Assembly: GCA_964407175.1 (NCBI GenBank)
Contig: CAYOUK010000002.1
Location: 1-39,261, forward strand
Length of the DNA stretch: 39,261 nucleotides
Direction of reading: 5' to 3'
Origin: an uncultured Muribaculaceae bacterium
Lineage (GTDB): Bacteria > Bacillota_I > Bacilli_A > RF39 > UBA660
Shown here: in pieces, positions 1,556-30,810 of the stretch
How positions within the stretch are numbered: position 1 is the first letter of the stretch
How the letters are laid out: the number at the start of each line of letters is the position of its first letter
The notes under the pieces: generated by a model
Seen by the model: the letters and a program-made list of their open reading frames with translations, nothing else
Database searches by the model: none
Told to the model about the DNA's origin: nothing
Program-made: the position numbers and the translations under genes

Positions 1556-1574
1556 ATTTTTTAATCTACTTTTT
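1551..1574. terminator. Bidirectional factor-independent terminator between convergent genes
   Basis: AGTAGATT (1551-1558) pairs with AATCTACT (1563-1570) as a perfect 8-bp stem with a 4-nt loop. A T-run follows on the + strand (1571-1574) and a T-rich run follows on the - strand (complement of 1541-1550). The hairpin overlaps or abuts both stop codons. The stem is AT-rich and therefore weak. Confidence 0.5.
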
Positions 1575-3006
1575 ACTTTCTAAATAAACCAAATAATCCA
1601 CCAGAGCTTGATTGAGTGTTATTTTTTCTAAATACTCCTAATTTATTTAAGAAGCCATCAAGTACTGCTTGATTATCTTTTCTATCATCAAGTGGAGGAA
1701 TATTATAGAATATTGGTACTTTAGCTTCGTATTCAAACTCTTTTACATCTTGATTAGTAAGCATTGATTTATTAAGTACTATTTTAGAATTCTTTAGTTT
1801 TTCAAGTGCTCTTCTATCGCGACGCATTAGTGTATTTAATTTAATCATGCTAGGTTCCATTAAGTATACAACTTCATTACATGTACCATCTGTTGCAACT
1901 GGGCTATTGTTAATATCAATAAGTACAATCTCATATTGAGAGAATCTATTTTTAACAGTGGATACTTGTGAATTTTGTACACTAATTAATTCTGTATCAT
2001 TGAAGTATGTAAAATCTGTATCATTTACTTCAACAGCTAATACTTTATATCCTTTTAATTGTTTTTTTAACATATATACAAGAGAAGTAGCTCCTGCACC
2101 TTCTGTTAAATCTTTAAATCCAATAACTAATGTTCCATTTACTACAGGTTGACTTTCAGGCTGTGCTTCTACTTGGCTTTGAACAGGAGCATCTTGAATG
2201 AACTGTCCACCTTGAGGTGCTTGTCCCATATTTGCTGGATTATTATAATTTACATTATTTGGCTGTGCTTCTGGTTGCATTTGAGGTGCCATTCCTTGCA
2301 TTTGCATTTGTGGTTGTGGTGGCATTTCAGGTTGCATTTGCATTTGAGGCGCAGCCATTTGATTAGCTGGGAAAGGACTTGGTGCCATTTGACCAGGCAT
2401 TCCAGTATTCATCATACCGCCCATGTTCATATTCATGTTATTCATCATCATAGCTTGTGGATTTGGCTGTGCAACTGGAGCACCAAATGGAGAAATTGGC
2501 TCTTGTGAAGCTTGCATTTGAGGTGCTTGCATTTCAGGCTGTTGCGGCGCTGGTTCTGGTGGCGTTGGAATACTTGTATTATTATCACTACCAGATTTAG
2601 GTGCAAGAGATGAACCAAGGTTAGTATTGGCTAAATCATGATACTGAGCAACATCCCTATAACTATTTGGATTCTCCATTAAATATGTTATACCCGTCAA
2701 CTCTCTAGTAAAGTTATATATACCTAAGCTAATAATCTGAGATAAATAAGAATTATTTACTCTAGGATCGTTATCTAAAAATAGAATAATTTTAGATGAA
2801 TCTATACCAGCGATAAGCTGTTGCATAACAGCAATATTAAAATGGTCTTTTAATGCTGTTATATCTAGAATCATTCTATTAAAATAGAAATTCTGGAATG
2901 TTTCAGTTATAGTTTCAACATCAAACTCTCCATCCATACGTTTGATTACATCAATATTCAAACTAGATAACGAGTCTTTATACTTATTGGCAATAATTAC
3001 ATTCAT
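1573..3006 (-). CDS. TadZ/CpaE-like pilus assembly protein: receiver-like N-domain, P/Q/M-rich linker, degenerate MinD/ParA-like domain
   Basis: The first ~120 aa show a beta-alpha receiver-like pattern. Residues ~131-289 are low complexity (PQMQMQ, MMMNNMNMNMGGMM). The C-terminal part reads LVIGFKDLTEGAGATS...YKVLAVEVN...YEIVLIDINNS, a MinD/ParA layout. SD AAGGAAGGA precedes ATG 3006. It is the last gene of the Tad-like operon. Confidence 0.6.
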   Translation of the reverse strand: MNVIIANKYKDSLSSLNIDVIKRMDGEFDVETITETFQNFYFNRMILDITALKDHFNIAVMQQLIAGIDSSKIILFLDNDPRVNNSYLSQIISLGIYNFTRELTGITYLMENPNSYRDVAQYHDLANTNLGSSLAPKSGSDNNTSIPTPPEPAPQQPEMQAPQMQASQEPISPFGAPVAQPNPQAMMMNNMNMNMGGMMNTGMPGQMAPSPFPANQMAAPQMQMQPEMPPQPQMQMQGMAPQMQPEAQPNNVNYNNPANMGQAPQGGQFIQDAPVQSQVEAQPESQPVVNGTLVIGFKDLTEGAGATSLVYMLKKQLKGYKVLAVEVNDTDFTYFNDTELISVQNSQVSTVKNRFSQYEIVLIDINNSPVATDGTCNEVVYLMEPSMIKLNTLMRRDRRALEKLKNSKIVLNKSMLTNQDVKEFEYEAKVPIFYNIPPLDDRKDNQAVLDGFLNKLGVFRKNNTQSSSGGLFGLFRK

Positions 3007-3037
3007 ATTTATTTCCTTCCTTTTTATTCTTTTTTAA

Positions 3038-3940
3038 TTATGAAAACGGCAATATTCCAGCGATTCCTGTTCCTGCTGAACCCCATAATTTAAGCGCAGT
3101 ATCTACAACTGCTATTGAGAAGCTTGTTGCAAAGCCAAGCTGTCCATCATTGTCGTCTCCCATCAAATCTACGTGTGTATGCTCTACTTCTTCATCTTCA
3201 TTATCTATTTTTCCGTTTCCGTTAGTATCTTCTTTCCATTTAAGCATACTTGGAAGAAGTGAGTTCCCTTCAATAATAGTATGGCTTGATACATGAGGCT
3301 CTTCTTCTTCGCCTTCATTAATTAAATCTATATTTACATTATAATCATATATAGCTTTAGTATCTCCCGACACTGGTATTTTTATTGCAACTCCAAGTAT
3401 TGGAATATCATATGTAAAAAATGTTGTTATTCTATAATATATTCTATTAGATGCAGCTGGATCTGTTTGTGTAGCATTAACTGTATCATCTTCTGTCTCT
3501 CTTGGCGCTACAAATTCTTGAATATATAAACTACATTCATGACTTGTAACATCAGGAGTAAGACCCATATCATACATACTTAAATAACATACTTTATCAA
3601 AAGAAGTTGCTTCACAATTTTCAGGATTAGTTTCATTACAAGTTAATAATTGTTCTTTCTTTAATTTACCATGTCCAGAATATCCTTGGCTGGCAAGGAA
3701 TGATTTAATTTCTCCCTGAAGTTTACAATACTCTTCAGTAGACCCTTGTCCACATGTTACATGACCAGGATTGGTTCCACTATAATTAAGTCCTTCTTCT
3801 TTTTCTATCATTTTTATAATGTGATTTTTAATTCTAAATGCTTTGTTATAATTAACTGATGCAGATAAAACTGCGATAAACAAAACCATAAAAGTCATAA
3901 CCAACCCAAGTATCCAGGTTGCTCCAATTGACTCTTTCAC
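3038..3940 (-). CDS. TadE-like minor pilin (pseudopilin) with a ~100-aa acidic C-terminal extension
   Basis: The leader MKESIG/ATWILGLVMTFMVLF is followed by a hydrophobic helix. The core is paralogous to the upstream 178-aa protein (RIYYRITTFFTYDIPILGVAIKIPVSGDTKAIYDY versus TVYRITTFYKLDVPVIDLAIQFPISSDTRAIFDF). The GTG start forms a GTGA overlap with the upstream stop, and a strong SD GGAGGTGG lies 7 nt upstream. Confidence 0.6.
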   Translation of the reverse strand: MKESIGATWILGLVMTFMVLFIAVLSASVNYNKAFRIKNHIIKMIEKEEGLNYSGTNPGHVTCGQGSTEEYCKLQGEIKSFLASQGYSGHGKLKKEQLLTCNETNPENCEATSFDKVCYLSMYDMGLTPDVTSHECSLYIQEFVAPRETEDDTVNATQTDPAASNRIYYRITTFFTYDIPILGVAIKIPVSGDTKAIYDYNVNIDLINEGEEEEPHVSSHTIIEGNSLLPSMLKWKEDTNGNGKIDNEDEEVEHTHVDLMGDDNDGQLGFATSFSIAVVDTALKLWGSAGTGIAGILPFS

Positions 3941-4473
3941 GGAGTACCACCTCCAGTATTATTTGCAAAATCAAATATAGCCCTTGTATCACTACTTATA
4001 GGAAATTGAATTGCAAGATCAATAACAGGAACATCTAATTTATAGAATGTTGTTATTCTATACACAGTTTTAGTATTTGTTCCAGTTGGATCGACTTGAC
4101 CATCACTTCTATTGTTTTGCTTAATTGGTTCAACACTTCTTTGAATCCAAACTTCACATTGGTTATAATCATTACTTATTAAACATTCAATTGAACATAG
4201 TGGGTCATTATCTATTACACAATTAAATTTTTGTCTATCATTTATATTACCATGATTAAAATAACCACTATATGATAAGTATCTACTAACTCTATTAACA
4301 AATTGAACGTCTCCATCACGATATCCTTCGTTTAATTCAACCATGCTGACCAAATTATTTTTAACCTGAAAAGACTTAGCTAAATTTATAGCTACAGAAA
4401 TGTATGAAGTAAACAAAATTATAAATGCAATCATAATACCTAAAACCCATGTTGCACCCATAGCCTGTCTCAT
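3937..4473 (-). CDS. TadE-like minor pilin (pseudopilin)
   Basis: The leader MRQAMG/ATWVLGIMIAFIILF is a G-A-T motif followed by a hydrophobic helix, like TadE/TadF N-termini. It has 4 Cys in the mature part. SD AAGGGA is upstream. It sits immediately after the pilin gene. Confidence 0.6.
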   Translation of the reverse strand: MRQAMGATWVLGIMIAFIILFTSYISVAINLAKSFQVKNNLVSMVELNEGYRDGDVQFVNRVSRYLSYSGYFNHGNINDRQKFNCVIDNDPLCSIECLISNDYNQCEVWIQRSVEPIKQNNRSDGQVDPTGTNTKTVYRITTFYKLDVPVIDLAIQFPISSDTRAIFDFANNTGGGTP

Positions 4474-4502
4474 TTAGCTTTCATCCCTTTCTATTAATAG
4501 TT

Positions 4503-4535
4503 ATAAACGTGATAGTGTTTAGCTATCACGTTTAT
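4503..4535 (-). terminator. Intra-operon stem-loop just downstream of the pilin gene (attenuator or mRNA stabiliser)
   Basis: Perfect 13-bp stem ATAAACGTGATAG (4503-4515) / CTATCACGTTTAT (4523-4535) with a 7-nt loop, 25 nt after the pilin stop. No clean U-run follows on the minus strand, so it is probably a partial terminator or a stabiliser. Confidence 0.5.
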
Positions 4536-4559
4536 ATTATTTGCTATATGTTTTTCAGA

Positions 4560-4835
4560 TTATTCTGTTTTTTCATAACAAATTTTTGTAGTATCTTTTG
4601 ATTTACTATCAATATAGTGGCAAGTCCAAGAAGTTGCTCCTGATGCAGCTGTATCACAAGATACTTTATACTTTTCTCCATCTTGTTTATAACCTGCACC
4701 ATTTCCACAAGCTTGTCCTAATATGATATTAGCTCTAAGCATTGGTAGTAAAAATACTGTAAATAAACCTGCGATAGCTGCGATTGCAACAATTGCGATA
4801 ACTGTTGTTGATAGTTCACCTGTTGCTTCCTTCAT
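4560..4835 (-). CDS. Putative major pilin of the Tad-like system (atypical, 91 aa, 4-Cys head)
   Basis: A short charged leader MKEATG is followed by a ~25-aa hydrophobic helix (ELSTTVIAIVAIAAIAGLFTVFLLPML). The gene sits between the platform genes and the TadE-like genes. It has a very strong SD (AAAGGAGGAA), its own promoter and a downstream hairpin. Confidence 0.55.
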   Translation of the reverse strand: MKEATGELSTTVIAIVAIAAIAGLFTVFLLPMLRANIILGQACGNGAGYKQDGEKYKVSCDTAASGATSWTCHYIDSKSKDTTKICYEKTE

Positions 4836-4878
4836 AAATAATCATTCCTCCTTTATTTTATCTATTATTTATAAATTA

Positions 4879-4907
4879 ATTATAAATCATATTTATATTT
4901 TTTTCAA
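4879..4907 (-). promoter_or_regulatory. Sigma-A type promoter in front of the pilin gene
   Basis: On the minus strand it reads TTGAAA (complement of 4902-4907), a 17-nt spacer, then TATAAT (complement of 4879-4884). It lies between the tadC-like stop (4927) and the pilin start (4835). Confidence 0.5.
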
Positions 4908-4926
4908 TACAAAGTTAAGCTACTTG

Positions 4927-5739
4927 TCAGAATAATGAAGCTCCACCACTAACGCTTGTAAATGTCATGAGAATTGCAACTACTAGTAGAATCATAACTC
5001 CAATACCAGTAACAATTAACATACGCATGGTCTTACCTTCCATTTTTTCAAGTCTTTCTTTATATTTTGTTTCACGAGCTTTTTGTTGTAGATTAGAAAT
5101 AGTCTTAGAAAAGCTCATTAATTGTTCTTGTTTTCTCTCTTGTCTACCAAGACTAAGTCTGTATAAAAGTCTCATCATACGCATTGAGTCTCTAACCGGG
5201 AACTCTCTTGCAAATTGCATGTATGGTTCAATTGAAGAATCACCACCATTAATTGAATCAATTAATCTTTGTAATCCTTCTTTAAATATAGGTGGTGCAG
5301 TTTCAATTGATTTACCAATTGCAACTGGCACTGTATAATGTTGAATAAGTATTTCTAGATTCTTTAAATAATAAGGAAGTTGTACATCTATTTCATGCAT
5401 ATGTCTTGCTCTATATGATTTTAAATCCATATAAGGCATTTTATATACAAGAATAATTGCCCCTACTATTGCTAGTAATGATAGATATTTTAAACTAGTT
5501 ATAAATATTATAAAACCTAGTCCTGCAGCGATCATCGCTGATCTTATTCTCTTGTTAAAAGCTTCATCGACATCTACGTCATCACCATATCTCGCTTTTA
5601 GTAAAAAGTCATAATCAGATTCTTTTAACTTTAAGAATAAGTCTTTATTATCAGTCGCTATTCTTTTAATACTTACGACTCCATCATATTCACATAAAGC
5701 AATTAATATTATTGCTACTATTACAATTTCATAATACAT
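4927..5739 (-). CDS. TadC-like inner-membrane platform protein (T2SS-F family)
   Basis: TM helices flank a ~110-aa helical cytoplasmic domain, with a final TM. It is the second of two tandem platform-like genes right after the secretion ATPase. Its start lies 1 nt from the upstream stop. Confidence 0.55.
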   Translation of the reverse strand: MYYEIVIVAIILIALCEYDGVVSIKRIATDNKDLFLKLKESDYDFLLKARYGDDVDVDEAFNKRIRSAMIAAGLGFIIFITSLKYLSLLAIVGAIILVYKMPYMDLKSYRARHMHEIDVQLPYYLKNLEILIQHYTVPVAIGKSIETAPPIFKEGLQRLIDSINGGDSSIEPYMQFAREFPVRDSMRMMRLLYRLSLGRQERKQEQLMSFSKTISNLQQKARETKYKERLEKMEGKTMRMLIVTGIGVMILLVVAILMTFTSVSGGASLF

Positions 5740-5740
5740 A

Positions 5741-6643
5741 TTACTCAGCTCCTATATCTTCATTGTAGAATTTAGTTCCATTAAGTAAGAAGTAAGAATT
5801 AATAAGTATTATGGCATGTAATAATATTTGTATATACCATAACTTACACATATTTAAATATGTTTCTCTTCCGAGCATGAACTGCATTATCATGATAAGT
5901 AAATAAAGCATTAGACCAAAAGTTAAGAACTTTTTATAGAAAGCCGCTCTATCTATTTTGTCACGATATACACCTTCTACAAGCATATCTATATCTAGCA
6001 TCATATTCTCTAGTGATTCACCTGAGTCTTTTGCACCTTCATTTGTAATCTGCAAGAATAATTGATGCATATTTTTTACCATGTAATATGGATATTTATC
6101 ATTCATGAAACTAAGTGCTTCATCAATAGTTCCGTTTGCATATGACATATCAATCATAGTTTTAACATCACTTAATATTGGTTCTTCTAAGATCCCAGAA
6201 TCTCTAACACCTTCAAGTGATTTAACAAAACTCTGTGAAGTATTAAATTCCATAATTACGTTTGTACAGTAAACCTGTATTTCCTCAAATATATATTCAT
6301 TATATATTCTTTTTAATCTTAAATAGTTAACATATGGAACAAATAGTACCGCAACACCTGCATAAATAATTACTAATATAAGATTATAGAAGTAAAGATA
6401 CGCAATACCACCAGCAACTACTGCGAAAAGCACAGCTTGAACAGTATATTGTCTAACAGTGTATTCTTGACCAAGTTCCTTGGCTTTTTGTTTAACTACC
6501 TTGAAACTATATGGTGCGTATTTGTCGTATACTCCACCGATTGTTTCAGTAAAATATTTATATGTACCTTGGCCTGGGCTTTTTCTATATATAAATATAA
6601 ATACTGCGCCAAGTGCCATAATTATAAACTCTAACCAATACAT
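5741..6643 (-). CDS. TadB-like inner-membrane platform protein (T2SS-F family)
   Basis: N-terminal TMs, a central helical cytoplasmic domain and C-terminal TMs. I moved the start to ATG 6643 because SD TAGGTG lies 7 nt upstream and it sits 1 nt after the ATPase stop. The track's GTG at 6652 is the alternative. Confidence 0.55.
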   Translation of the reverse strand: MYWLEFIIMALGAVFIFIYRKSPGQGTYKYFTETIGGVYDKYAPYSFKVVKQKAKELGQEYTVRQYTVQAVLFAVVAGGIAYLYFYNLILVIIYAGVAVLFVPYVNYLRLKRIYNEYIFEEIQVYCTNVIMEFNTSQSFVKSLEGVRDSGILEEPILSDVKTMIDMSYANGTIDEALSFMNDKYPYYMVKNMHQLFLQITNEGAKDSGESLENMMLDIDMLVEGVYRDKIDRAAFYKKFLTFGLMLYLLIMIMQFMLGRETYLNMCKLWYIQILLHAIILINSYFLLNGTKFYNEDIGAE

Positions 6644-6644
6644 A

Positions 6645-7934
6645 TTACGCACCTACACTTTCTGTTTGAGGATTGACTGCTGGTGCCAAAGACGGATTCA
6701 TCTCTGGTAATTCAGCACTAATTTGTGGACTGGCTGCTTGTTGCGCTGCTGGAGCAGTAGGAACAGCTTGTGCTTGAGCTGCTGGAGCAGCAGGAGCAGC
6801 TTGTGCTTGAGCTGCTGGAGCAGCAGGAGCAGCTTGTGCTTGAGCTGCCGGAGCAGCTGGAGCTTCATCCACTTGGTTTAATCTAAACGTATCTTCAGGT
6901 AAAAGTACACCTTGAATAGCTATATAATCCAAAAGATGTTTTGTAGGATTATTCATTGTGATTTTACCTTCCAATGTCTTTTTATAAATCATATTAGATT
7001 TTGCCTCATTCGTTTTATCATCTACATAAAACTCACAAACTTCTAGTATCTCACGCTGGAATCTCTCTAGTTCTCTACTATAGAATCCCTTAACGTATAC
7101 ACCCAGCTGGATATATCTACAAATAGTTCTTTCAAACTGTCCAACATCTTGATTACCTTCAAGAAGCGCGTACATACGCATTGGTATACTTGAAGCTTTA
7201 TCAGAGTGGATTGTCGATATAATGTTATGTCCAGATGATATTGAGTTTCTAACCGCCATAACGGCTTCAGCACTACGAACTTCGGAAATAAGTATCCACT
7301 GAGGATTCTGTCTCATACAGCCTTCTAGTAAGTCTGAGTATGCTGCAATGTTATTTGTTTTCATCGCAACTATATCTCTATGTGGATATATCTTATCTAA
7401 GTGAAGCTCTAAAGTATCTTCAATCGTTATTATCTTTTCATTCTCTTTTATATGACTAGCTAGGTACTTAACAAGCTCTGTTTTACCTGAACCAGTTTCA
7501 CCACTTACTATAATGTTACAGTGTCCTTCGACACATTTCATTAAGAAGTCATGAATTTGTATATTTACATATCCTTCATCTAATAATTTCTTTTTATTAA
7601 GTCTTATCTTAGCTGGTGTTTTACGAATAACACAAGCAACACCATTCGTCGCAATCGACTCATGAACGAAGTTAAGACGGAGTTCTGCACTTTCAGCATC
7701 CAGAAGTGGATGGGCCATATTGAATGTTGAACCCATAACGTTTGAACACTGAAAGGCAAGTTTTTCCATAAAAGCATTATTAATCTCAGGATCTTCAACT
7801 GGATAAATACCTTTGCTTAAAGTCTTTAAATGTATCTGACCACCATTACTATACGATACGTCTGTAATGTCGTCATCATCGAGAAATTTTTGAAGAGGTC
7901 CAAAATCTATCTGGGAGAAAATTGCCTCATTCAT
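6645..7934 (-). CDS. tadA: TadA/CpaF-type (VirB11 superfamily) secretion ATPase with an Ala/Pro/Gln repeat tail
   Basis: Walker A VSGETGSGKTE, IITIEDTLEL, NPQWILISEVRSAEA and SSGHNIISTIHS boxes are typical of T2SS-E/VirB11/CpaF ATPases. SD AAGGAGAG is upstream. The C-terminal ~65 aa are APAAQ-type repeats. Confidence 0.85.
   Translation of the reverse strand: MNEAIFSQIDFGPLQKFLDDDDITDVSYSNGGQIHLKTLSKGIYPVEDPEINNAFMEKLAFQCSNVMGSTFNMAHPLLDAESAELRLNFVHESIATNGVACVIRKTPAKIRLNKKKLLDEGYVNIQIHDFLMKCVEGHCNIIVSGETGSGKTELVKYLASHIKENEKIITIEDTLELHLDKIYPHRDIVAMKTNNIAAYSDLLEGCMRQNPQWILISEVRSAEAVMAVRNSISSGHNIISTIHSDKASSIPMRMYALLEGNQDVGQFERTICRYIQLGVYVKGFYSRELERFQREILEVCEFYVDDKTNEAKSNMIYKKTLEGKITMNNPTKHLLDYIAIQGVLLPEDTFRLNQVDEAPAAPAAQAQAAPAAPAAQAQAAPAAPAAQAQAVPTAPAAQQAASPQISAELPEMNPSLAPAVNPQTESVGA
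6743..6863 (-). repeat. 33-bp in-frame tandem repeat (~3.7 copies) encoding AAPAAPAAQAQ units
   Basis: Units at 6765-6797 and 6798-6830 are identical. The unit at 6831-6863 has 2 mismatches. A partial copy lies at 6743-6764. Confidence 0.9.
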
Positions 7935-7946
7935 ATTCTTCTCTCC

Positions 7947-8819
7947 TTAATTATTATCTTTGTTTTCTTCTGCTTTTTTAGTATCGTCTTTATTATCTGC
8001 ATCATCAGTGTTAGTATCTTCTAACTCACATTCTGCAGTTCCTGTTTCAGACTTAATACATTCATCTGGTATAGTAGCAGTTTGATCAAGTACTAATGTT
8101 TTTAAGTAATCACTACTTACTAGAGTCTCACCAGCTTTAGCAGTATAATTATTATTTCTTGGTACAATTACTATTTGAAGTCCAAGATATTCAGCTTTTT
8201 TAAGTAGTAAATATAAATCTTCTGGTACTGCGAATAGTAATCTTGCTGGTGTTCTATGTTCAACTGTAGTTTCAAATACGTTTCTACCACTTGAATCTTT
8301 AACACCAAGTACTTTTATACTTTGAATAAATTTACCATATAATAATTTTCCATCTGCAGCAGTTGTTCTAAGATATAAATCAATATAATCATCAGGGAAT
8401 ATTGAGTTACCATAAGTAGAATCTTGAGTAACAGGTAAGTTATAAATTGTTTCCCCATCTGGAATAGAATCAAATGCACTATCTGGCATATCTTCAGCAG
8501 TCATTACTGCTTCCTTGTAGAAAAGTGAGTTTTGAGGTATTTCAGCAGCATAGCTTGAATATTTACCTTTTACTTGACTACAATCTTGAATAACATTTCC
8601 TGTAATCTGAGTAGATAAAACTTTTGTTGTTGAAAGCATATCTTCAGTTATGGCAGTTCTTGCTGGAATAGTTTGTGATGCTACACAAACAGTTGTTGTT
8701 TGAACAGCACTTTTAAGTCTCCAAGAATAAACTGCATATACTAGTACAACACAAACTAAAATTGCTAGTAAAGTAACAGTATTCTTATTTGATAAAAATC
8801 TTTTTAATGTATTACCCAT
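7947..8819 (-). CDS. cpaB: CpaB/RcpC-like Flp pilus assembly protein (N-terminal TM anchor, SAF-like domain)
   Basis: A TM anchor (VTLLAILVCVVLVYAVY) is followed by VASQTIPARTAITEDMLSTTKV, a SAF-domain-like start. The gene lies immediately upstream of the ATPase. Strong SD AAAGGAGGAA. The C-terminal tail is acidic. Confidence 0.6.
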   Translation of the reverse strand: MGNTLKRFLSNKNTVTLLAILVCVVLVYAVYSWRLKSAVQTTTVCVASQTIPARTAITEDMLSTTKVLSTQITGNVIQDCSQVKGKYSSYAAEIPQNSLFYKEAVMTAEDMPDSAFDSIPDGETIYNLPVTQDSTYGNSIFPDDYIDLYLRTTAADGKLLYGKFIQSIKVLGVKDSSGRNVFETTVEHRTPARLLFAVPEDLYLLLKKAEYLGLQIVIVPRNNNYTAKAGETLVSSDYLKTLVLDQTATIPDECIKSETGTAECELEDTNTDDADNKDDTKKAEENKDNN

Positions 8820-8858: not shown

Positions 8859-9272
8859 CTAACTTCCATTGCTAAGCTCCAAAATAGCATTTATTCTATT
8901 CTTAAGTGCTACACTGGTAGTAGTTGTATCTCTTACAAAGAATTGGGATGACGTCGTTGATACTTCAACTGTCACCTTTGGTGGAACTTCATATATGTCA
9001 TAGAAGTTAATTGTTGTCGTTTTATTAATTGTAATAACTTCTGCATATCTTCTAATGAAGTTTTCCATAAATTTCTCACTGCTTATTCTAAGTTCACCAT
9101 ATTTTCTATAATAAGCATAATCAACAGCTTCTATCATTGAAGCTTCTGTTATTTGTTTTGTCATGTAATAGTTTTGTTCGCTGGTTGTTGTCATGTCAGT
9201 TACTAGTAAAATGACTGATAACACAATCAAGCCTAGAACCATCATCCACCAGCCCCACACAGCTTCATTCAT
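8859..9272 (-). CDS. Small membrane-anchored protein of unknown function (Tad-operon member)
   Basis: One N-terminal TM helix (WWMMVLGLIVLSVILLV) plus a ~105-aa T-rich ectodomain. SD GGGGTGA is upstream. I recognise no family. Confidence 0.5.
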   Translation of the reverse strand: MNEAVWGWWMMVLGLIVLSVILLVTDMTTTSEQNYYMTKQITEASMIEAVDYAYYRKYGELRISSEKFMENFIRRYAEVITINKTTTINFYDIYEVPPKVTVEVSTTSSQFFVRDTTTTSVALKNRINAILELSNGS

Positions 9273-9330: not shown

Positions 9331-10035
9331 TCATAATTCTTTGTCATATCTCCTTCTAAGCATTTCCTGTAGAACCACGTAAGCTAAGGCTATAAGTGCA
9401 GTTCCAACAGCTACTATAATTATTATCTTTTTATGATCTTTTATTTGTTCTAATAAAGCTTTGTTTTTTGGATCTGTATCTGGTGGTGCGACTTTATTTA
9501 AAAATGCTGCATTAGAGCCAAAATCAAAGTCTTCCTTTACAAACTTCTTACAAAAGTCTTCACTGCTGGTCTTGCAGTATTCATATTCACTATATGGATT
9601 ATATTTAGGTGTAGTTATTTTTTTTGTTCCAACAAGGTCACCTTTACACATTACTCTATTTGAATAAATACTTAACTTATAGTTATAAATGTTGCTGTAG
9701 TCATAATGTTCATATGTATAAACACCATTTTTAGTATCTTCATAAGAAACATTGACTTGAACGTTATCTACATCATTTGATAATACAACATATATATCAT
9801 CTTTAATATTATAAATATTTATTTTATAAATGTAGTTTGGAATAGTATATGTTGTTTTATTGTTACCAACCTTTAATGGGACGATTTTGCTATTATCCTC
9901 AACGTCGTAGCTAATTTGAACTTGGTTTGCGGCTTTTTTAATTTCTAGGTTCTCTGTAGAACTACAAGATAAAGCACTTACATCAAGTGCTGAAAAAGTA
10001 ATAAGCAAGAAAAACAACATAATTACTTTCTTCAT
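9331..10035 (-). CDS. Type-I membrane protein of unknown function (signal peptide, 4-Cys ectodomain, C-terminal TM plus basic tail); paralog of the 176-aa protein
   Basis: Signal peptide MKKVIMLFFLLITFSALDVSA, a Y/N-rich beta-like ectodomain, then a TM (IIIIVAVGTALIALAYVVL) followed by RRRYDKEL. It is the first gene of the Tad-like operon. Confidence 0.55.
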   Translation of the reverse strand: MKKVIMLFFLLITFSALDVSALSCSSTENLEIKKAANQVQISYDVEDNSKIVPLKVGNNKTTYTIPNYIYKINIYNIKDDIYVVLSNDVDNVQVNVSYEDTKNGVYTYEHYDYSNIYNYKLSIYSNRVMCKGDLVGTKKITTPKYNPYSEYEYCKTSSEDFCKKFVKEDFDFGSNAAFLNKVAPPDTDPKNKALLEQIKDHKKIIIIVAVGTALIALAYVVLQEMLRRRYDKEL

Positions 10036-10060
10036 ATTATCCCTACTTTACATATATAAT

Positions 10061-10069
10061 ATTATATCA
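10061..10069 (-). promoter_or_regulatory. Candidate extended -10 element (TGATATAAT) for the Tad-like operon
   Basis: The minus strand reads TGATATAAT about 25-30 nt upstream of the 234-aa gene start, just downstream of the terminator of the giant gene. No good -35 is present. Confidence 0.3.
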
Positions 10070-10107
10070 TAGATGTATATCAAATAAAAGCAAAAAAGTG
10101 TATTTTT

Positions 10108-10145
10108 TTATAAAAAAACCTAATTGTTTTTTTACAATTAGGTTT
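10108..10145 (-). terminator. Factor-independent terminator after the giant gene
   Basis: 11-bp perfect stem AAACCTAATTG (10116-10126) / CAATTAGGTTT (10135-10145) with an 8-nt loop, followed on the minus strand by TTTTTATAAAAAAA. The stop codon lies inside the stem. Confidence 0.7.
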
Positions 10146-13100
10146 ATTCATATACACTAAGTTTTCCAAGTACATCTCTAACCATTTGACTAACGACTCC
10201 ACTTACTACATCATCTGTTAAATTATTGCCATTTTGATTAAGTTCAATACCAACAGAAGACAGTAATCGTTTTAGAACGGTAGAAGCTTCAGATGTAAAC
10301 ATTCCTTGGTCTGCGCCCGATAATACATCTCTAAATGTCGATGCATATGTCCATATAAGTGATCCAAATTCCTCAAGTGTTGGAACATGATCCATAGACA
10401 CATATATTCTAGTTGGATCTTCACTTTTAATAAGTTTTTCTCCGTTTGTAACATTTTTATAAGCTTCATAATCTAGTTTATTCTGCTTAGTTATAAGTTT
10501 TTGAATATTAGCCTTTAAATCCCATTCTTCAGATTGATTCGAATCTGATTTGTAACTAGAGAATACGTCTTTGATATCTTGTTTTACTTCAGGGGTGTAT
10601 TTAATTGTCTGAACTGGAGATACAATATCATTACAATAATCATTTCCACCATAGTATATACACCATAAGAATGGACTATACCAGTGATATCCAATGTTAT
10701 TATCCTGGTTATTATATCTTCTATATACATAATCAGGTACAGTAGTAGATGCGCTTGATGATGTATCTTTAAAATCAACTATCCATTTAGTAGAACCATC
10801 AGCATTATCAAATCTTCTTACATTTCCGTCGCTATCTTCTTCCGAAAGCCCATTATAATCAACAATTCCAAGAGACCAATCGGCATATCCTCTTCTTTGG
10901 TTTCCGCCAACTGCAGAATTATTGTTAAGAGTTCCGCTGTTATCAGTAATTATAGACATTTTCACTCTATTATAACGACGTATTAGTCTCATTGTAGGAG
11001 TGGATAACCTAAATGTGAATTTATCCTTACCTGTTAAAACTTGATAATCATTATCTGCTTGTTTAAATAAGTTGTCTTCAGAATCATCTCCTGTACCAGC
11101 TAACCTAGATGCTTTATATGCCTCTATTCTTTGAACAAGACCATTATAAGGACCTTTTGTTGATGCTAGATTACTATAGTTCCAGTTTGCTCCAAGCGCT
11201 CTTTTTTGAGGATTAATATCGCTTAAGGCAATAGTTCTATAGAAGAAGTTAGCGTTTCCTAAATCTTCATCTACTTTATATGAACATACATATTGTTCTG
11301 TTCCACCCGAACCAATATATCCATCACTAGTTAAAGTTTTGGCTTCGTGCGGACTAGATATATTTGCTTTATCTGCAAGACCTTGATTCTTAATATAGTT
11401 TTGAAGTGAATAATCATCTACAGTATTATCATGTGATACTTCTGAAACCATTTCAGAATCTATTCCGCCCACTTGAGATGATGCTTTTGACCATTCATCC
11501 CATGTACTTTGTGGAACTTTACTTGGTTTTTCTGTGTCTAATGTTGGCATCTTTCTTGTTGGTCCCATATTTATATCGACACTTATTCTAAAATTCTTAG
11601 TTCCACTTGTTGTATCAAATCCAATTGGAATCGAGTTATTCGGAAGTACAACATATTCAGAGTTTTTAGCAAGTACACTATCATCAAACTTATCCATATA
11701 TGTTATGGCAGTACCACCCTTAACTATTATTTGAGGAATAGATGCATAAAGAACTATATTTTCACTCTTATAATAATAGTCTTTAACTGTCCAGAATCCA
11801 TTTAAGAAGTCATACCAGAACTTTTCTAAGTTTACTCCAAGAGATGTAATGACATTTTGATCAGCATAGTCTTCCGCTGCTGGGATAGCCGCACATTTTG
11901 CCCACATTCTTTCATAAAATGAATCTCCTGTTTCATTCTGCAAGTCAGCAGCGGTTGTATCTGAACAAGCATATACTGGAGAAGACCTTGAGTCATCAGC
12001 ACTAGTTAGTTCATTACCACTTTCATCTGCACAGAAGATACCAAGGTCAGCAAGACTAAGTTCTCCATTTTCACCAGCTTGAACCTCAATAAACTGTTTA
12101 TGTAAATTAGGACACTTAATAGCTCTTAAATCAAGATCTATATATCCTTGATTATCTTTTATAGCAGTATCATAATCATCATAATATAATCTTGCTTTAA
12201 CTATTGGTGTGTTGCTAGAGTTATTACCCTTAATATACTCAGTAATACTATTGGCAATCTGAGCTCTCTCAGTTGGATCAGTTGTTTGATTATGATCTAA
12301 ATCAATACCAAATAAATTACTATATTGTAGATAATTTTTAAAGAACTGATGTTGAACGTTGAAATTAACTTGATTGACAAGAATATCTGTAGGGTTAAAA
12401 GTACGTGTACTAAGCGCCTTGGTAGATACACATGTTTTCTTGAGTTCTATTTTAGCAATAGGTGCTCTTGTATCAATTGTTTTATTATTAAATTCTCTAT
12501 TATAAGTAAAGTATGAGTTATTATTACCAATCGTTACAAACTGACCTTTTTGACCACTATCCTGAATACCAGGATAAGTTATTTTATATGCATCAGCACA
12601 TACTATATCCATACCGCGATATCTAAGTGATTTCATAGAATCAGGAAGTATACTATATCCAACTCCAGTGGCTTTTCCTCTTGATAACTGTGAATACCAG
12701 CTGTCATAATCTCTAATAACATTTCCAGAGCTATCTTTTTCTATTCTATTTGGAGATGCTTCGATGTATTTACCAGATGATACTTCTTGGTAATCATCTA
12801 CAGTACAAGCATAATCCATATCTATATGATATGCTTTACATTTAACAACAGGTGTAGTTGTTGTTTGCATAAATGTGGTTAGTTCAGCAGATAATGCCCC
12901 GGTAATACCTGAGTGAGCAAAAGTGTCTCTATTATAGTATGGGTTATCACTTAATTCTATTCTTTGATAATGGATTTTGCTATCTGTTGCTCCCCATCTA
13001 AAACCATTGTAACCAGCATATTCATAATGATAATTACCATTGGCGTCATAACAACACTCTGTTTCTTCGTTACATCCACATGTTTTTACTTGTAATATTG

Positions 13101-15252
13101 CAGATAAGTCAGCAGCATAAATATGCTTAGTCATAGCTGATATTACCGGCGGCCATCCCCAAGTATCACTTATACTGAACTGTGTTGCAGTTCCTTTCAT
13201 TTGTCGAGCCTGGCTTTCAGGGACTGCTTTAGCGCCACTTAACAATAGTGCTTCTATGCCATCTAAACCTAGGACTTTATCTACACCCTCTGAAACACTT
13301 TTAGATGAAATTAGGGTGAAGAAGGTATCTACTCCATTTTGGAGAAGGTCTGTGGTCATGTCCCCAAATAATCCAGCAGTCTTGACAGATTCTAATAGTT
13401 TATAAGTTTCTATTTGTTCTATTTCTTTAGAATCTAATGGCACTAAATTACCATCTACTATTTTTTTAGATTCTTTCAACATATTTGCTGTTCCATTGTA
13501 ATTTAGACCAGTCGAGTCATAACAACACTCTATTTCTGGATCACAACCACAGCTTTTCATTATTACTTTGTTTTGGTCTGCTACAGGAAGTTTATCGGCT
13601 TTTAACAAATCAATATTTTGATAATTAGTTCTACCATTAGAGTCAGTATATGGTATAACAGCGCGATATCTGTCTAATACGTTTGGAACCTGTATTTGTA
13701 TTGTATTTCTGCGTCCTTCCTCGTCTCCTGAAAGATATACTGTTTCAGCAAAAAGTGTTGGTTTATCTTTAACGTATTCATACCTTAGGGATGCCGCATT
13801 AACGTTACCAAGGATATTACTTATACTGCTGTCGGCGATTTCATTAACTTTGTCATGTATATTACCAATGATATTTAAACTATCAAAAAGACTAATAATT
13901 TGACTTCTACCAATGATGTCGTTTAATTTATTACTAGCATCTTGAAGTGCATTATAAGCACCAAATAAACCTTGGTTAGTTTTTTTATAACAACATTCTT
14001 CTAATGGATTACATGTAATTTCACACTTTGTTAGAATTCCTCCACTTGTGTCACTTCCATGTTCTTTTCCATCCCAATATCCAGTTTTAGTATATGTATA
14101 ATGATCAGGTGTATCTTTACGAATAGTTGAATCATAATGAACCACTACATTACCATTTTCATCTACGTTAGTTTGACTACCACCTGATAACATATCCATA
14201 ATCCTCGAGAATATTCCAGAAAGAAAACCTCCCGTATTACTGTTACTTGTTGCACCGGAGAATGAAGCTCCATCTGCATAACAACAAGTCTTATTTTCAT
14301 CACATGGTTCTACGGTTGGTCCCTCACAAGTATATGCCATTACATATATTACAGGCGAATAGTAAAAGTATGTACAATCAGCAAAAGGTGATGTTATTTG
14401 ATTACACACTGAAATTTCTGTACCAGGAGGTACTGTTGGTAAAAATGAAGAATAATAAGCTTCAGTAGAAGCCTTTTTTCTTTCGACAAGAAATTTTTTC
14501 GCATTGCCATTTCCATAAAAAGGAATACTAAAGTCGCTAGAAGTATAATTTTTTGATAAAGATTTTCCAGAATAACCGCCAGAATATGTAGGTTTTTCAA
14601 AATATAAATCTACTTTTGTCTTAGGCAATAAAGTTGACTTTTCATTAACAGGATAAATTGTTCCTGTTATTGCCCTAGACGCAGTAAAGTCCCAAGCATT
14701 AGTAATATCTTCGTCGCTGTGTGAATTAACACCCGCATTGCTACCTGGAATAATTAATCTAATTTCTGATGTGTTATCTCCACTACCAATTACTTTATAT
14801 ATATAATTGTTTTCATTAGGTGTCCATCCGTTCTCTGATTTTTTGTTAGAATATAAATCTGTTATTTTCTTTAATTGATTCCAGTATTCATCAACGCTCC
14901 AATTATTTTTAAGATCTAACCCTGAAATTGAACCTGAGCAGGTACTGGCATTTTCTACTGTTTGATTTCTTCCATAATTTCCTCCAATAAATGTTAGATG
15001 ATGAGTTGTATTAAAACCTATTGTGCCAGAACAACCAACTCTATAGATATGCTCATCAAATTGAAAGAAATCGTATGGTTCAGAAAGATTCTCGTGAGCG
15101 TCAAAGGAATATTCCCCAGCTCTAAAGAAATAAATATTGTAATAAGTTCTTCCCTGGACACATGAAAAATTATCGGTGTTGTCCATTTCGGCATATACAT
15201 CGATAACAAAACACACTAAAAGAATAAGTAGAATGTTTAATACTTTTTTCAT
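10144..15252 (-). CDS. 1702-aa secreted giant protein of unknown function with four C-x-C-x5-CCY cysteine clusters
   Basis: Uninterrupted 5.1-kb ORF with Sec signal peptide MKKVLNILLILLVCFVIDVYA/EMD. It has no C-terminal TM and no LPXTG. The start overlaps the stop of the upstream gene (ATGA), with SD AAAGGGG upstream. Confidence 0.8.
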   Translation of the reverse strand: MKKVLNILLILLVCFVIDVYAEMDNTDNFSCVQGRTYYNIYFFRAGEYSFDAHENLSEPYDFFQFDEHIYRVGCSGTIGFNTTHHLTFIGGNYGRNQTVENASTCSGSISGLDLKNNWSVDEYWNQLKKITDLYSNKKSENGWTPNENNYIYKVIGSGDNTSEIRLIIPGSNAGVNSHSDEDITNAWDFTASRAITGTIYPVNEKSTLLPKTKVDLYFEKPTYSGGYSGKSLSKNYTSSDFSIPFYGNGNAKKFLVERKKASTEAYYSSFLPTVPPGTEISVCNQITSPFADCTYFYYSPVIYVMAYTCEGPTVEPCDENKTCCYADGASFSGATSNSNTGGFLSGIFSRIMDMLSGGSQTNVDENGNVVVHYDSTIRKDTPDHYTYTKTGYWDGKEHGSDTSGGILTKCEITCNPLEECCYKKTNQGLFGAYNALQDASNKLNDIIGRSQIISLFDSLNIIGNIHDKVNEIADSSISNILGNVNAASLRYEYVKDKPTLFAETVYLSGDEEGRRNTIQIQVPNVLDRYRAVIPYTDSNGRTNYQNIDLLKADKLPVADQNKVIMKSCGCDPEIECCYDSTGLNYNGTANMLKESKKIVDGNLVPLDSKEIEQIETYKLLESVKTAGLFGDMTTDLLQNGVDTFFTLISSKSVSEGVDKVLGLDGIEALLLSGAKAVPESQARQMKGTATQFSISDTWGWPPVISAMTKHIYAADLSAILQVKTCGCNEETECCYDANGNYHYEYAGYNGFRWGATDSKIHYQRIELSDNPYYNRDTFAHSGITGALSAELTTFMQTTTTPVVKCKAYHIDMDYACTVDDYQEVSSGKYIEASPNRIEKDSSGNVIRDYDSWYSQLSRGKATGVGYSILPDSMKSLRYRGMDIVCADAYKITYPGIQDSGQKGQFVTIGNNNSYFTYNREFNNKTIDTRAPIAKIELKKTCVSTKALSTRTFNPTDILVNQVNFNVQHQFFKNYLQYSNLFGIDLDHNQTTDPTERAQIANSITEYIKGNNSSNTPIVKARLYYDDYDTAIKDNQGYIDLDLRAIKCPNLHKQFIEVQAGENGELSLADLGIFCADESGNELTSADDSRSSPVYACSDTTAADLQNETGDSFYERMWAKCAAIPAAEDYADQNVITSLGVNLEKFWYDFLNGFWTVKDYYYKSENIVLYASIPQIIVKGGTAITYMDKFDDSVLAKNSEYVVLPNNSIPIGFDTTSGTKNFRISVDINMGPTRKMPTLDTEKPSKVPQSTWDEWSKASSQVGGIDSEMVSEVSHDNTVDDYSLQNYIKNQGLADKANISSPHEAKTLTSDGYIGSGGTEQYVCSYKVDEDLGNANFFYRTIALSDINPQKRALGANWNYSNLASTKGPYNGLVQRIEAYKASRLAGTGDDSEDNLFKQADNDYQVLTGKDKFTFRLSTPTMRLIRRYNRVKMSIITDNSGTLNNNSAVGGNQRRGYADWSLGIVDYNGLSEEDSDGNVRRFDNADGSTKWIVDFKDTSSSASTTVPDYVYRRYNNQDNNIGYHWYSPFLWCIYYGGNDYCNDIVSPVQTIKYTPEVKQDIKDVFSSYKSDSNQSEEWDLKANIQKLITKQNKLDYEAYKNVTNGEKLIKSEDPTRIYVSMDHVPTLEEFGSLIWTYASTFRDVLSGADQGMFTSEASTVLKRLLSSVGIELNQNGNNLTDDVVSGVVSQMVRDVLGKLSVYE

Positions 15253-15779
15253 TTGTTCTTACCCCTTTTTAATACAAATATAGCTAAAACAAATAATCCA
15301 ATTGTTGCAACTATTAGTCCAATAGTAATTAAAATCTTTTTAGTAGATAGACCATTTGAAACAACAGATCCATCATCGAATACTTTTGTTGCGCCTTTAT
15401 TATAATATGGTAAAAATATTTCTTCAGTTTTAATAGGTTTATTAGTACATCCTTTAAAATAGAAATATATATTGTTTACTCCACCAAATACTTTAGCAGA
15501 TCCATTAGATATAATTTGCGAATTATCTCCTGAATCCATAACTAGTGCCATAAAATTATCATTTAATCCTTCAACAGATATATTTATATATTTAACGGGT
15601 ACTCCATTTTTATCTTTATTAGCAACATTATCGTATTTTATTACATAATTATAATCAATTTCATTTAAAGCTTTTCTATATTCTCTTAAGTTTCCATCAG
15701 CGCATAAGTTTGCAGCGCTAACTAAACTAGGTATAAGTAAAAAAGACATAATTATTACATATGTTAATATTCTTTTCAT
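15249..15779 (-). CDS. Type-I membrane protein of unknown function (signal peptide, ectodomain, C-terminal TM plus KRGKNK tail); paralog of the 234-aa protein
   Basis: Signal peptide ...LLIPSLVSA/AN and C-terminal TM ILITIGLIVATIGLFVLAIFVL. SD AAGGTAGGTG is upstream. It is translationally coupled to the giant gene. Confidence 0.6.
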   Translation of the reverse strand: MKRILTYVIIMSFLLIPSLVSAANLCADGNLREYRKALNEIDYNYVIKYDNVANKDKNGVPVKYINISVEGLNDNFMALVMDSGDNSQIISNGSAKVFGGVNNIYFYFKGCTNKPIKTEEIFLPYYNKGATKVFDDGSVVSNGLSTKKILITIGLIVATIGLFVLAIFVLKRGKNK

Positions 15780-15804: not shown

Positions 15805-15813
15805 AGTATAACA
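15805..15813 (-). promoter_or_regulatory. Candidate extended -10 element (TGTTATACT) for the 176-aa/1702-aa unit
   Basis: The minus strand reads TGTTATACT about 25 nt upstream of the ATG at 15779, downstream of the SBP-gene terminator. The -35 is poor. Confidence 0.3.
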
Positions 15814-15834
15814 TACAAATATACATTTTGAAAG

Positions 15835-15868
15835 CGAAAAAATAACAAAACTGTTAAGTTTTGTTATT
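15835..15868 (-). terminator. Factor-independent terminator after the SBP lipoprotein gene
   Basis: 11-bp perfect stem AATAACAAAAC (15841-15851) / GTTTTGTTATT (15858-15868) with a 6-nt loop, followed on the minus strand by TTTTCGCTTT. The stop codon is in the stem. Confidence 0.65.
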
Positions 15869-16730
15869 CCATTAATTCTTTTTTGAAGTTATCAATATTG
15901 TCTCTCATCATAGTTTCATATGTTGTATGTTCGTTTTCTTCGCTTTCAGATAAAACAGTCATCGAATGTATTTTATTTATCTCTGCTCCAAGATTTTTTA
16001 ATTCTTCTGTTGCAGCAGTTTCTTTTGTTGTATCAAGCATATATATATATTTTACTTTTCCGCTTGCTATTAATCTTCTTGCTTCTTCCATTGACTTAGA
16101 AGATACTTCATAATATGTACTATCAACATCAGTGACTGTTAAACCATATTCACTTAAGAAAAGTAATTCTTCACTTGCTATTATTATATTTTTATCTTCA
16201 GCATTAATAGACATCATTTCCATCTCTGCATCATAACTACTTATCAATAGTTTTAAATCATTATAATTTTTGTTAATCTCTTGTTTTACAACAGTGCTTT
16301 TAATATAATTTTCAAGCCCTGTTTTTAAGTTATTAGCAAGCATTAGAAAGTCACTTGGATTAAGCCATAATTCACAAATGCCTCTTTCATATTCCATGCC
16401 TTCACTAACATCTATTATTTTCATATTATTATTTCTGTTTATTAAATCTCTTGCAATAAGTGTTTCATCTCCAAGGCCATTATATACAAATAGTCCTCCC
16501 TCAGCATAACTTTCTTTTTGTTTGTTAGTTAAACTATATTTAGATAAATCCACTCCTGCTGGATAAATACTTTTTACATTAGAGTTATATCCATATAATT
16601 TCTCTGTTATATATGTAATTGGGTAAACAGTTGTATATACATCTATATCTTCAAGATCATCTCTTTTAAAACAACCCGATAGTAATAATAAAGTTATTAA
16701 AATCACACATAATTTTTTTAGTTTGTTCAT
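15864..16730 (-). CDS. ZnuA/TroA-like (cluster A-I) solute-binding lipoprotein, orphan
   Basis: Lipobox LLLSGC. VYTTVYPITYITEKLYG, ELWLNP and LFLSEYGL resemble the conserved blocks of Zn/Mn ABC substrate-binding proteins. I moved the start to ATG 16730 because SD AAGGTGA lies 5 nt upstream. No ABC ATPase or permease gene is adjacent. Confidence 0.6.
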   Translation of the reverse strand: MNKLKKLCVILITLLLLSGCFKRDDLEDIDVYTTVYPITYITEKLYGYNSNVKSIYPAGVDLSKYSLTNKQKESYAEGGLFVYNGLGDETLIARDLINRNNNMKIIDVSEGMEYERGICELWLNPSDFLMLANNLKTGLENYIKSTVVKQEINKNYNDLKLLISSYDAEMEMMSINAEDKNIIIASEELLFLSEYGLTVTDVDSTYYEVSSKSMEEARRLIASGKVKYIYMLDTTKETAATEELKNLGAEINKIHSMTVLSESEENEHTTYETMMRDNIDNFKKELME

Positions 16731-16840
16731 TTCTATCACCTTTTTACTTGATATATTAATTTTACTATAATTTGGCCTTTTTGTAAAATAAAACTAGTAA
16801 TTTAACTTATTATTTTATATAATATTTACGGTGATTAAAA

Positions 16841-25527: not shown

Positions 25528-25543
25528 AAGAGGATAACCTCTT
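25528..25543 (-). terminator. Short terminator hairpin after the 788-aa gene
   Basis: AAGAGG (25528-25533) pairs with CCTCTT (25538-25543) with a 4-nt loop, followed on the minus strand by TTTTTTATGAG. The stop codon is inside the stem. The stem is only 6 bp. Confidence 0.45.
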
Positions 25544-28945: not shown

Positions 28946-28967
28946 GTCTTTTCCCTTTCTATTTTTT

Positions 28968-30089: not shown

Positions 30090-30118
30090 TGCAATCATCT
30101 CTTTCAATAAAACAAATC

Positions 30119-30145
30119 ACTATCTGCCTATAAAAGGCAGATAGT
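30119..30145 (-). terminator. Stem-loop between the subunit gene and the signal peptidase gene (attenuator or stabiliser)
   Basis: 10-bp perfect stem ACTATCTGCC (30119-30128) / GGCAGATAGT (30136-30145) with a 7-nt loop, followed on the minus strand by GATTTGTTTTATTG. Confidence 0.5.
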
Positions 30146-30173
30146 CACTTGTAAATCTATATATTAATTATGA

Positions 30174-30805: not shown

Positions 30806-30810
30806 TATAA

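Follow-up and report, generated by a model that had tools for sequence, protein, structure and literature searches.

The giant gene and its two-gene unit

The stretch of DNA analysed here (hereafter called the window) comprises 39,261 nucleotides of contig CAYOUK010000002.1 from assembly GCA_964407175.1, which is labelled as an uncultured Muribaculaceae bacterium and is placed by GTDB in the lineage Bacillota_I; Bacilli_A; RF39; UBA660. We focus on an open reading frame (ORF) that encodes a protein of 1702 amino acids (aa), which we call the giant. Its gene occupies positions 10144-15252, on the minus strand like all features of the window described below unless otherwise stated, and its product is the longest of its family. 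Immediately upstream lies an ORF whose predicted topology is that of a 176-aa type I membrane protein (15249-15779). An earlier note, made from the sequence alone, had described these two ORFs as a translationally coupled unit placed in front of a Tad-like pilus operon. The coupling was confirmed by reading the overlap directly: the ATG start codon of the giant overlaps the TGA stop codon of the 176-aa ORF as ATGA at positions 15249-15252, and the minus strand reads ...AACAAATGAAAAAAG, wherein AAAGGGG ahead of the ATG is the ribosome-binding site. Judging from sequence comparisons, the giant ORF is far beyond chance, because it has full-length orthologues (45-46% identical) and belongs to a family with 76 distinct complete members.

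The giant begins with a signal peptide (residues 1-21, MKKVLNILLILLVCFVIDVYA followed by E; positions 15190-15252), as evident by a hydrophobic segment and a cleavage-type site. This segment, at residues 1-25, is the only one of its kind in the protein and ends at VYA/E, a site of the AXA type expected for Sec export. No further transmembrane (TM)-like segment was found in the giant, and a regular-expression search of the protein revealed no LPXTG motif; its C-terminus reads ...GKLSVYE. The earlier description of a Sec signal with neither a C-terminal TM segment nor LPXTG is thereby upheld, and a sortase-anchored adhesin was rejected for lack of a C-terminal LPXTG. The same note had recognised no repeat family or domain by eye. 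Self-BLAST indeed detected no internal repeats, and searches with the giant against Pfam, NCBIfam, PHROGs and PDB sequences yielded no match in any of them, including nothing in Pfam at E<=0.1. The negative PHROGs result leaves the giant with no phage link, and these same searches bear out the absence of a match to any known adhesin or toxin family. What had been overlooked is a cysteine motif, C-x(1-7)-C-[DN]-[PE]-x3-CCY, that occurs four times, at residues 309-325, 410-422, 568-578 and 725-735 (positions 14278-14328, 13987-14025, 13519-13551 and 13048-13080). All orthologues keep this motif, which the distant relatives P0125 and P0133 share and which is often followed by DSTGxxY. It may form a disulfide knot or bind a metal where domains meet.

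Conservation divides the giant into three parts, of which three of the four cysteine motifs fall in the first and the fourth lies at the start of the second. The N-terminal 'head' (residues 22-700; positions 13153-15189) is hypervariable, with 22-47% identity within the genus, and comparison with other genera detected no similarity in this part. The core (residues 701-1596; positions 10465-13152) is conserved at 47-80% identity per 50-residue block within the genus, with the exception of a variable block at residues 1251-1300 (29%). A C-terminal tail (residues 1597-1702; positions 10147-10464) is specific to the genus, variable (23-31% identity) and absent elsewhere, as the giants of most genera end at the core with ...LI.KQN.LD. 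In an alignment of 38 members, sharing across the whole family is limited to residues ~800-1596, and the invariant positions of this region include C885, P894, C941, C1323, N1356, W1357, N1428 and S1526. Most of these invariant positions are Cys, Asn or aromatic residues, and one is the Ser. No invariant His, Asp or Glu is present among the 38 members, which speaks for a role in structure or binding and disfavours an enzyme, though S1526 is invariant. No Pfam domain recurs among the 38 members even at E<=1, and a PDB search with a profile of the giant family returned nothing.

In the giants of two loci of the window lineage (L001 and L002; loci recovered in this study carry numbers of this type), GxxxG-like spacing of the glycine-zipper kind abounds in the last ~110 residues (GGLLVGVDTSGLVNAGGSVLGKLIGAATG). 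Such spacing is reminiscent of polymorphic toxins with membrane-active tails; a toxin or immunity domain linked to the giant tail was not found.

The two-gene unit is flanked by candidate regulatory signals, where all promoter and terminator calls in the window are matches to consensus or structure only. A terminator-like hairpin with a 12-bp stem, a 6-nt loop and a T-run directly follows the giant stop codon (10108-10145). The hairpin and its T-run (10116-10145, minus strand) fold with -14.8 kcal/mol (z = -5.4), and none of 200 shuffled sequences folds as well. Its shape, not its sequence, is kept at the same place in L001 and L002; L008 and L011 lack it. A promoter-like TTCAAA-16-TGtTATACT with an extended -10 element (15805-15832) precedes the 176-aa gene, and an equivalent TGnTATA(C/A)T is found before the corresponding gene in L001, L002 and L008. 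The next gene upstream encodes a ZnuA-family lipoprotein (15864-16739), whose stop codon, a terminator-like hairpin and a T-run (15836-15866) separate it from the module. Hairpins are found at the corresponding place in L001, L002 and L008. The claim of a separate two-gene unit with signals of its own thus holds for the window, and such an arrangement is limited to the window, L001, L002, L008 and L011.

A module shared by relatives of the giant

Relatives of the giant proved difficult to find by direct search. With the full giant as query, a search of 5.8 billion clusters yielded four proteins, one 99% identical and three 45-46% identical over their full length. Two of these three reside on long contigs whose gene order matches that of the window throughout, from SpoIVA up to where the operon ends. 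The same clusters searched with an alignment of the C-terminal domain (A3) gave no homologue. A scan of a genome collection with alignment A1 gave no relative; this collection appears to lack the window genus or to mask it. Searching 1.84 billion representatives exhaustively by HMMER with a genus-level profile of the C-terminal 1200 residues, we recovered 12 proteins; matches outside the genus cover only the last ~300 residues, and the full-length relatives carry no Pfam domains.

The family became visible after we iterated a profile of the C-terminal domain on loci fetched through the DUF5411 protein, a small protein encoded nearby. Starting from DUF5411, 214 relatives led to 69 loci from species-representative genomes. 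In every locus of sufficient length, an ORF of 900-1700 aa with the C-terminal domain of the giant abuts the start of the DUF5411 gene, and in the exceptions (L060, L063 and L066) the available upstream sequence is too short. This yielded 76 distinct complete giants of 916-1702 aa (median 1228), all 76 with a signal-like N-terminus and none with another TM-like segment. The hosts, ~70 species, are all uncultured and known as metagenome-assembled genomes (MAGs) labelled Bacilli, Erysipelotrichaceae or 'Tenericutes', although the taxon label of some bins is evidently wrong. The gut sources of these MAGs are mouse, rabbit, ruminant, chicken and human. In the searches run here, the giant family was found in Bacilli MAGs only, and no description of the family, or of its pairing with DUF5411, was found in the literature searched.

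The distance between the giant and DUF5411 genes is -20 to +20 nt in 75 of 80 cases, and the five exceptions are the loci of the window lineage, in which a gene for a 234-aa protein is interposed. By families defined with jackhmmer, the recurrent order is one or two 234-like genes, giant, DUF5411, CpaB-like, ATPase and two membrane proteins, followed by a pilin, one or two TadE-like proteins and a protein at the TadZ position. The order within the first part varies, as seen around two of the 12 HMMER hits, with 176-like, giant, 234-like and DUF5411 in L008, and 234-like, 176-like, giant and DUF5411 in L009. The latter is the order outside the window lineage, where these four genes overlap or nearly overlap. 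The module also resides in at least three chromosomal neighbourhoods (for example, ZnuA/rnc/smc versus FtsW/Metallophos/Rce1), and therefore its linkage is not mere inherited synteny. As predicted from gene order, the functional unit is a set of four genes: those for the 176- and 234-aa paralogs, the giant and DUF5411.

The earlier note had asked whether homologs of the giant always co-occur with the Tad-like operon and with the two small membrane proteins. Every relative with readable context lies in a module with 176/234-like and DUF5411 genes. The proposed partnership with the Tad-like operon also stands insofar as this module forms the first part of that operon in most species, but the giant is tied more tightly to DUF5411 than to the ATPase, and in the DNA fetched for one sub-clade (L028-L040) it is not found beside Tad-like neighbours. 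In these loci (e.g. L030, 244-10435, and L033, 5066-16417) an extra protein of 300-460 aa with an N-terminal TM segment is encoded between the 234-like gene and the giant, and behind the module come spoVS-like and unrelated genes in place of the ATPase operon.

Four genomes (L032, L033, L038 and L046) carry two pairs of giant and DUF5411 genes. In three of these, the two DUF5411 copies differ at only 0-3 of 432-441 nt (L032, 10001-10432 and 15955-16386; L033, 10001-10435 and 15983-16417; L038, 10001-10441 and 15462-15902), while the paired giants are 29-50% identical. The DUF5411 identity in L032 and L033 ends at the ORF borders and the flanks are unrelated, a pattern of ORF-limited concerted evolution. 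In L038, ~200 nt upstream of the duplicated gene are still ~82% identical. This duplication pattern would fit a constant adaptor that carries exchangeable or diverging heads.

The small partners of the giant share an architecture. The 176-aa protein has a signal peptide, an ectodomain of ~120 aa, a C-terminal TM segment and a basic tail, with relatives L004_189 (E 3e-8) and L003_187. The 234-aa protein (9331-10035), the ubiquitous small partner of the module, is likewise a type I membrane protein with an N-terminal signal and a C-terminal TM segment, has four conserved Cys residues and matches L003_244 with E 2e-45. As the earlier note had supposed, the two are paralogs, because their jackhmmer families converge and merge (105/105); pairwise BLAST alone gives E 0.002. 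Reading either as a lipoprotein was rejected, as the conserved Cys lies 2-4 residues past an AXA-type site and there is no lipobox. A PDB profile search with the 234-aa family returned no match. The 234-aa gene is preceded by a promoter-like TTGATA-16-TATTAT (10056-10083), and TGATATAAT at 10061-10069, which overlaps this site, is kept in all five loci of the window lineage.

DUF5411 of the window is a 137-aa protein (8859-9272) that is recognised by the Pfam family of that name. Its AlphaFold2 (AF2) model, from 77 sequences and with a mean confidence score (pLDDT) of 78, consists of a helix at residues 2-48, short helices and a three-stranded sheet, which together resemble the 'lollipop' shape of pilins. 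The leader MKES.W[GA]|[WY]W also resembles the leaders MKEATG|EL of the pilin and M[KR]E[SA].G|A.W of the TadE-like proteins, and this resemblance holds across species. It is plausible on the basis of this model that DUF5411 is pilin-like. In ~15 species DUF5411 is extended to 270-560 aa, as at L039, L045, L049, L057, L060, L069, L072, L074 and L076, and the Peptidase_M15 domain among the added parts puts a peptidase of the cell wall onto the protein; the window protein has no extension. In the literature searched, DUF5411 appears once, in a predicted CpaF/PilC operon of gut Clostridia (PMC9523054).

The Tad-like operon and the remainder of the window

The genes for the Tad-like machine form a block at 1573-8819. 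Closest to DUF5411 is a CpaB-like gene (7947-8819) whose product scores 46.8 bits against TIGR03177 (cut-off 71) and 22.4 bits against RcpC (cut-off 28.8). The secretion ATPase that follows (6645-7934) is of the CpaF/TadA type, with a Pfam T2SSE match of 9e-29. Its first PDB match is CpaF (E 6e-20), followed by archaeal FlaI and GspE and then by VirB11, and its NCBIfam matches (VirB11, TadA, FlaI) all fall under the curated cut-offs. Near the ATPase C-terminus, a 33-nt tandem repeat of 3.7 copies (6741-6864) encodes a low-complexity tail of the APAAPAAQAQA type, and the ATPase of the sister species is shorter (407 versus 429 aa). Two polytopic membrane proteins occupy the TadB and TadC positions (5741-6652 and 4927-5739); neither matches T2SSF or any PDB entry, and a profile of the TadB-like family likewise returned nothing from the PDB. 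Then come a 91-aa pilin (4560-4835; leader MKEATG|ELSTTV) that lacks the Flp motif G/XXXXEY, as there is no EY at +5/+6, and two TadE-like pilin-like proteins (3937-4473 and 3038-3940). A 477-aa protein at the TadZ position (1573-3006) has no Pfam or NCBIfam match. Its centre is a Pro/Gln/Met-rich low-complexity region of ~160 residues, and its C-terminal third looks, by eye only, like a degenerate ParA/MinD fold.

Protein-by-protein comparison of the window with two sister-species loci reveals strongly differing rates of divergence. The housekeeping neighbours (RNase III, SMC, ScpA/B, SpoIVA and ZnuA) are 81-95% identical, and the CpaB-like protein, the ATPase, the membrane proteins and DUF5411 are 87-94% identical. 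Values for the TadE-like proteins are 61-68%, for the pilin 60-63%, for the 176- and 234-aa proteins 51% and 53%, and for the giant 45-46%. Thus, the predicted extracellular components evolve fastest in the region.

Elsewhere in the window, a second possible surface-fibre cluster lies at 25542-32599. It comprises a HerA/DUF87 ATPase (30839-32599), a 191-aa secreted protein whose N-terminus appears TasA-like by eye, a protein in which a signal peptidase S26/S24 domain is joined to a polytopic membrane domain (28968-30107), a DUF5305 protein at 27905-28945 and, at 25542-27908, a 788-aa protein with weak fn3 and Hint-module matches. At 74-1555 on the plus strand, an ORF for a YfhO-family membrane protein covers only profile positions 310-834 of 835; either its N-terminal part is missing or, close to the edge of the window, its start has been disrupted. 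Beside spoIVA is a 269-aa ORF (24667-25476) whose counterpart by position in the sister loci carries an ORF6N (KilA-N-like) domain, and this ORF may be the remnant of a mobile element.

Interpretation of the giant and its partners

In our view, the giant very probably belongs to this filament system as a dedicated component. Most likely, the Tad-like filament carries or handles it, and it is probably a fast-evolving tip adhesin. In our favoured model, to which we assign a probability of about 45%, the giant would be docked via DUF5411 at the filament tip and would resemble PilC/PilY1 in function without being homologous to it. The system itself would be a divergent type IV filament of Tad/archaeal type in uncultured gut Bacilli, with the giant as its dedicated accessory. 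Sec would export the giant and its signal peptide would be removed, after which the conserved core (residues ~800-1600) would dock onto a membrane-embedded DUF5411 adaptor, with the small 176- and 234-aa membrane proteins possibly holding the docked giant. The complex of giant and DUF5411 would then join the TadE-like proteins in an assembly-priming complex, and pilins added below would push this complex through the cell wall to the filament tip, where the ~700 N-terminal residues, which evolve fast, would serve as a ligand-binding head. Such working logic would be that of PilC/PilY1 and the minor pilins of type IVa pili, reached by an unrelated protein. In favour of the model stand the linkage of the giant and DUF5411 genes, the conserved core behind a variable head, the duplicated modules, the pilin-like shape of the DUF5411 model, the Sec-type N-termini of all 76 complete giants, the lack of invariant His, Asp or Glu, an ATPase nearest to CpaF, and the precedents of PilC/PilY1 and of the Tad tip complexes.

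PilC/PilY1 is a large (about 1000-1200 aa) Sec-dependent non-pilin that is encoded among pilin-like genes, with a proposed role in assembly priming and tip adhesion (PMC13533445). Its C-terminus docks on a minor pilin, and it combines this conserved C-terminal docking part with a variable N-terminal adhesive part (PMC13533445). A C-terminal beta-strand that completes the sheet of a minor pilin, and a place at the tip, are further traits of the family. The giant similarly has a Sec signal, no pilin-type leader and no membrane anchor. However, among its 38 aligned members there is no PF05567 beta-propeller, no other Pfam match and no vWA domain. Its host system is Tad/archaeal-like and monoderm, its partner is DUF5411 and not a PilK-type (PilK/PilX) minor pilin, its module contains extra type I membrane proteins, and its docking is proposed by analogy.

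Other systems share particular features with the module. Tad pili carry exchangeable tip complexes, several of which may occur per genome (Myxococcus Kil; PMC12075869). TadG/CpaL and the Kil 'Tip' are, like the giant, large accessories that customise the end of a Tad filament, and the tandem modules of L032, L033, L038 and L046 may be compared with them. However, TadG, CpaL and KilN are pilin-like, with a class III signal and an N-terminal helix, and often with vWA or modular C-terminal domains, whereas the giant has a classical Sec signal, no pilin helix, no M-K/R-E-x-x-G leader and, in 38 members, no vWA. Operons of gut Clostridia (Roseburia, Ruminococcus and Eubacterium) combine a CpaF-type ATPase with DUF5411 in a secretion- or pilus-like arrangement; these are uncharacterised and were predicted by gene-context embedding, and they encode small internalin-like proteins (151-478 aa) instead of a protein of 0.9-1.7 thousand aa (PMC9523054). 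The canonical Erysipelotrichales tad locus of Bulleidia (tadV-pilA-tadEFG) was considered and set aside as a different system (PMC12786226).

In Streptococcus sanguinis, PilB and PilC are modular type IV pilins in which an adhesive module is fused to a pilin. This is likewise a monoderm filament with adhesive modules on pilin-like carriers, for which fusions of DUF5411 to Ig, SH3 and M15 domains offer a parallel, but the giant is a separate Sec-exported protein and is not fused to a pilin.

Several observations weigh against the tip-adhesin model. Neither the window ORFs that were scanned with Pfam nor the other translations read revealed a prepilin peptidase (A24/TadV). The locus does have the ATPase of a Tad system, but because its pilin lacks the Flp motif and no peptidase was detected in the window we call it 'Tad-like', not Tad. 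The pilin-like nature of DUF5411 also found no backing from a Foldseek search of its model against the PDB, which gave no match (best E 0.6), nor from hhalign with the TadE-like family, which aligned the 12-residue leader only (probability 11%). Moreover, ~15 species carry DUF5411 fused to Ig-like (Big_2), SH3 (SH3_3) and Peptidase_M15 domains, and such fusions suit a wall-remodelling membrane protein as well as they suit a tip pilin. The modules of L028-L040, in one or two copies, lack an adjacent ATPase operon within the <=10 kb fetched on each side, and hence DUF5411 is the giant's constant partner. In the window genus, the 106-aa tail past the conserved C-terminus would bury any terminal docking strand, and an AF2 model of giant residues 1141-1702 (11 sequences) reached a pLDDT of only 39. 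Finally, docking of the giant to DUF5411, its tip location and adhesion are steps that we infer from what was observed, namely the gene linkage, the pattern of domain conservation, the signal and topology, and the evolutionary rates. The same holds more broadly for the roles of adhesin, tip protein or cargo raised by the earlier note, between which we choose by inference.

In a rival reading the giant is a cargo that, at ~190 kDa, would be too large to diffuse through peptidoglycan. A short filament with DUF5411 on top could operate like the piston of a type II secretion system (T2SS), pushing the giant through the wall and releasing it into the wall or the medium. Secretion by type IV filament machines is known (PMC6668835). 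Such a role would agree with a Sec signal in a protein that has neither an anchor motif nor a TM segment, with a gene that is dedicated to filament genes, and with the Peptidase_M15 fusions in the ~15 species, which suggest that wall crossing matters. We nevertheless regard cargo release as unlikely. T2SS substrates are not usually co-translated one-to-one, or duplicated, with a pseudopilin, and a docking-type core joined to a hypervariable head better suits a receptor-binding protein that is retained at the surface. Nor, to our knowledge, has any type IV filament of a monoderm been established as secreting proteins in the manner of a T2SS.

The peptidoglycan contact suggested by the M15, SH3 and Ig fusions could instead point to a structural role, in which the giant, the 176/234-aa anchors and DUF5411 form a wall-spanning collar or conduit that replaces the secretin complex in a monoderm. 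The module is indeed present in nearly every operon, at the 5′ end beside the CpaB-like gene, and its membrane-anchored small partners are always present. We doubt this reading somewhat more than the last, as the parts of the machine are slow to evolve in this system (87-94% identity), whereas identity is 45% for the giant, whose N-terminal half cannot be aligned between genera. Two very different giants may coexist in one genome, and some modules lie away from the machine genes. Far less probable than either is that the giant is an unrelated surface protein or toxin that is a neighbour by inherited synteny only. The promoter-like site and terminator that the 176-aa/giant pair has to itself in the window lineage might suggest as much, as might a variable tail behind a conserved core, which recalls polymorphic toxins. 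However, the link holds over ~70 species and through several gene orders and contexts, and the giant is translationally coupled to DUF5411. Searches gave no toxin or immunity domains, only one genus has the tail, and the gene downstream of the giant in the window is a member of the ubiquitous 234-aa family and is not linked to the tail.

A more speculative extension, to which we give little weight, is that the module serves as a contact device aimed at other cells, in which the Tad-like filament of gut Bacilli with small genomes would bear exchangeable receptor-binding heads of the giants on a constant DUF5411 adaptor. An adaptor with an M15 peptidase domain, as in some species, would then let the filament attach to a partner or prey bacterium and breach its wall locally, or exit the wall of its producer. 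If so, unrelated parts would make up a device that in monoderms corresponds to the Kil pilus of Myxococcus.

Returning to the tip-adhesin model, two aspects of type IV filament biology that are poorly understood are how filaments and large attachments pass through the thick wall of monoderms, and how Tad-type pili gain binding specificity. The module represents a conserved and previously unannotated set of candidates for these functions in ~70 uncultured gut species. It provides a functional context for Pfam DUF5411, together with a new protein family that has no Pfam or PDB sequence match. If the model is true, a PilY1-type solution would have evolved independently in a Tad-like system, and the specificity of these commensals for hosts or partners would depend in large part on the head of the giant.

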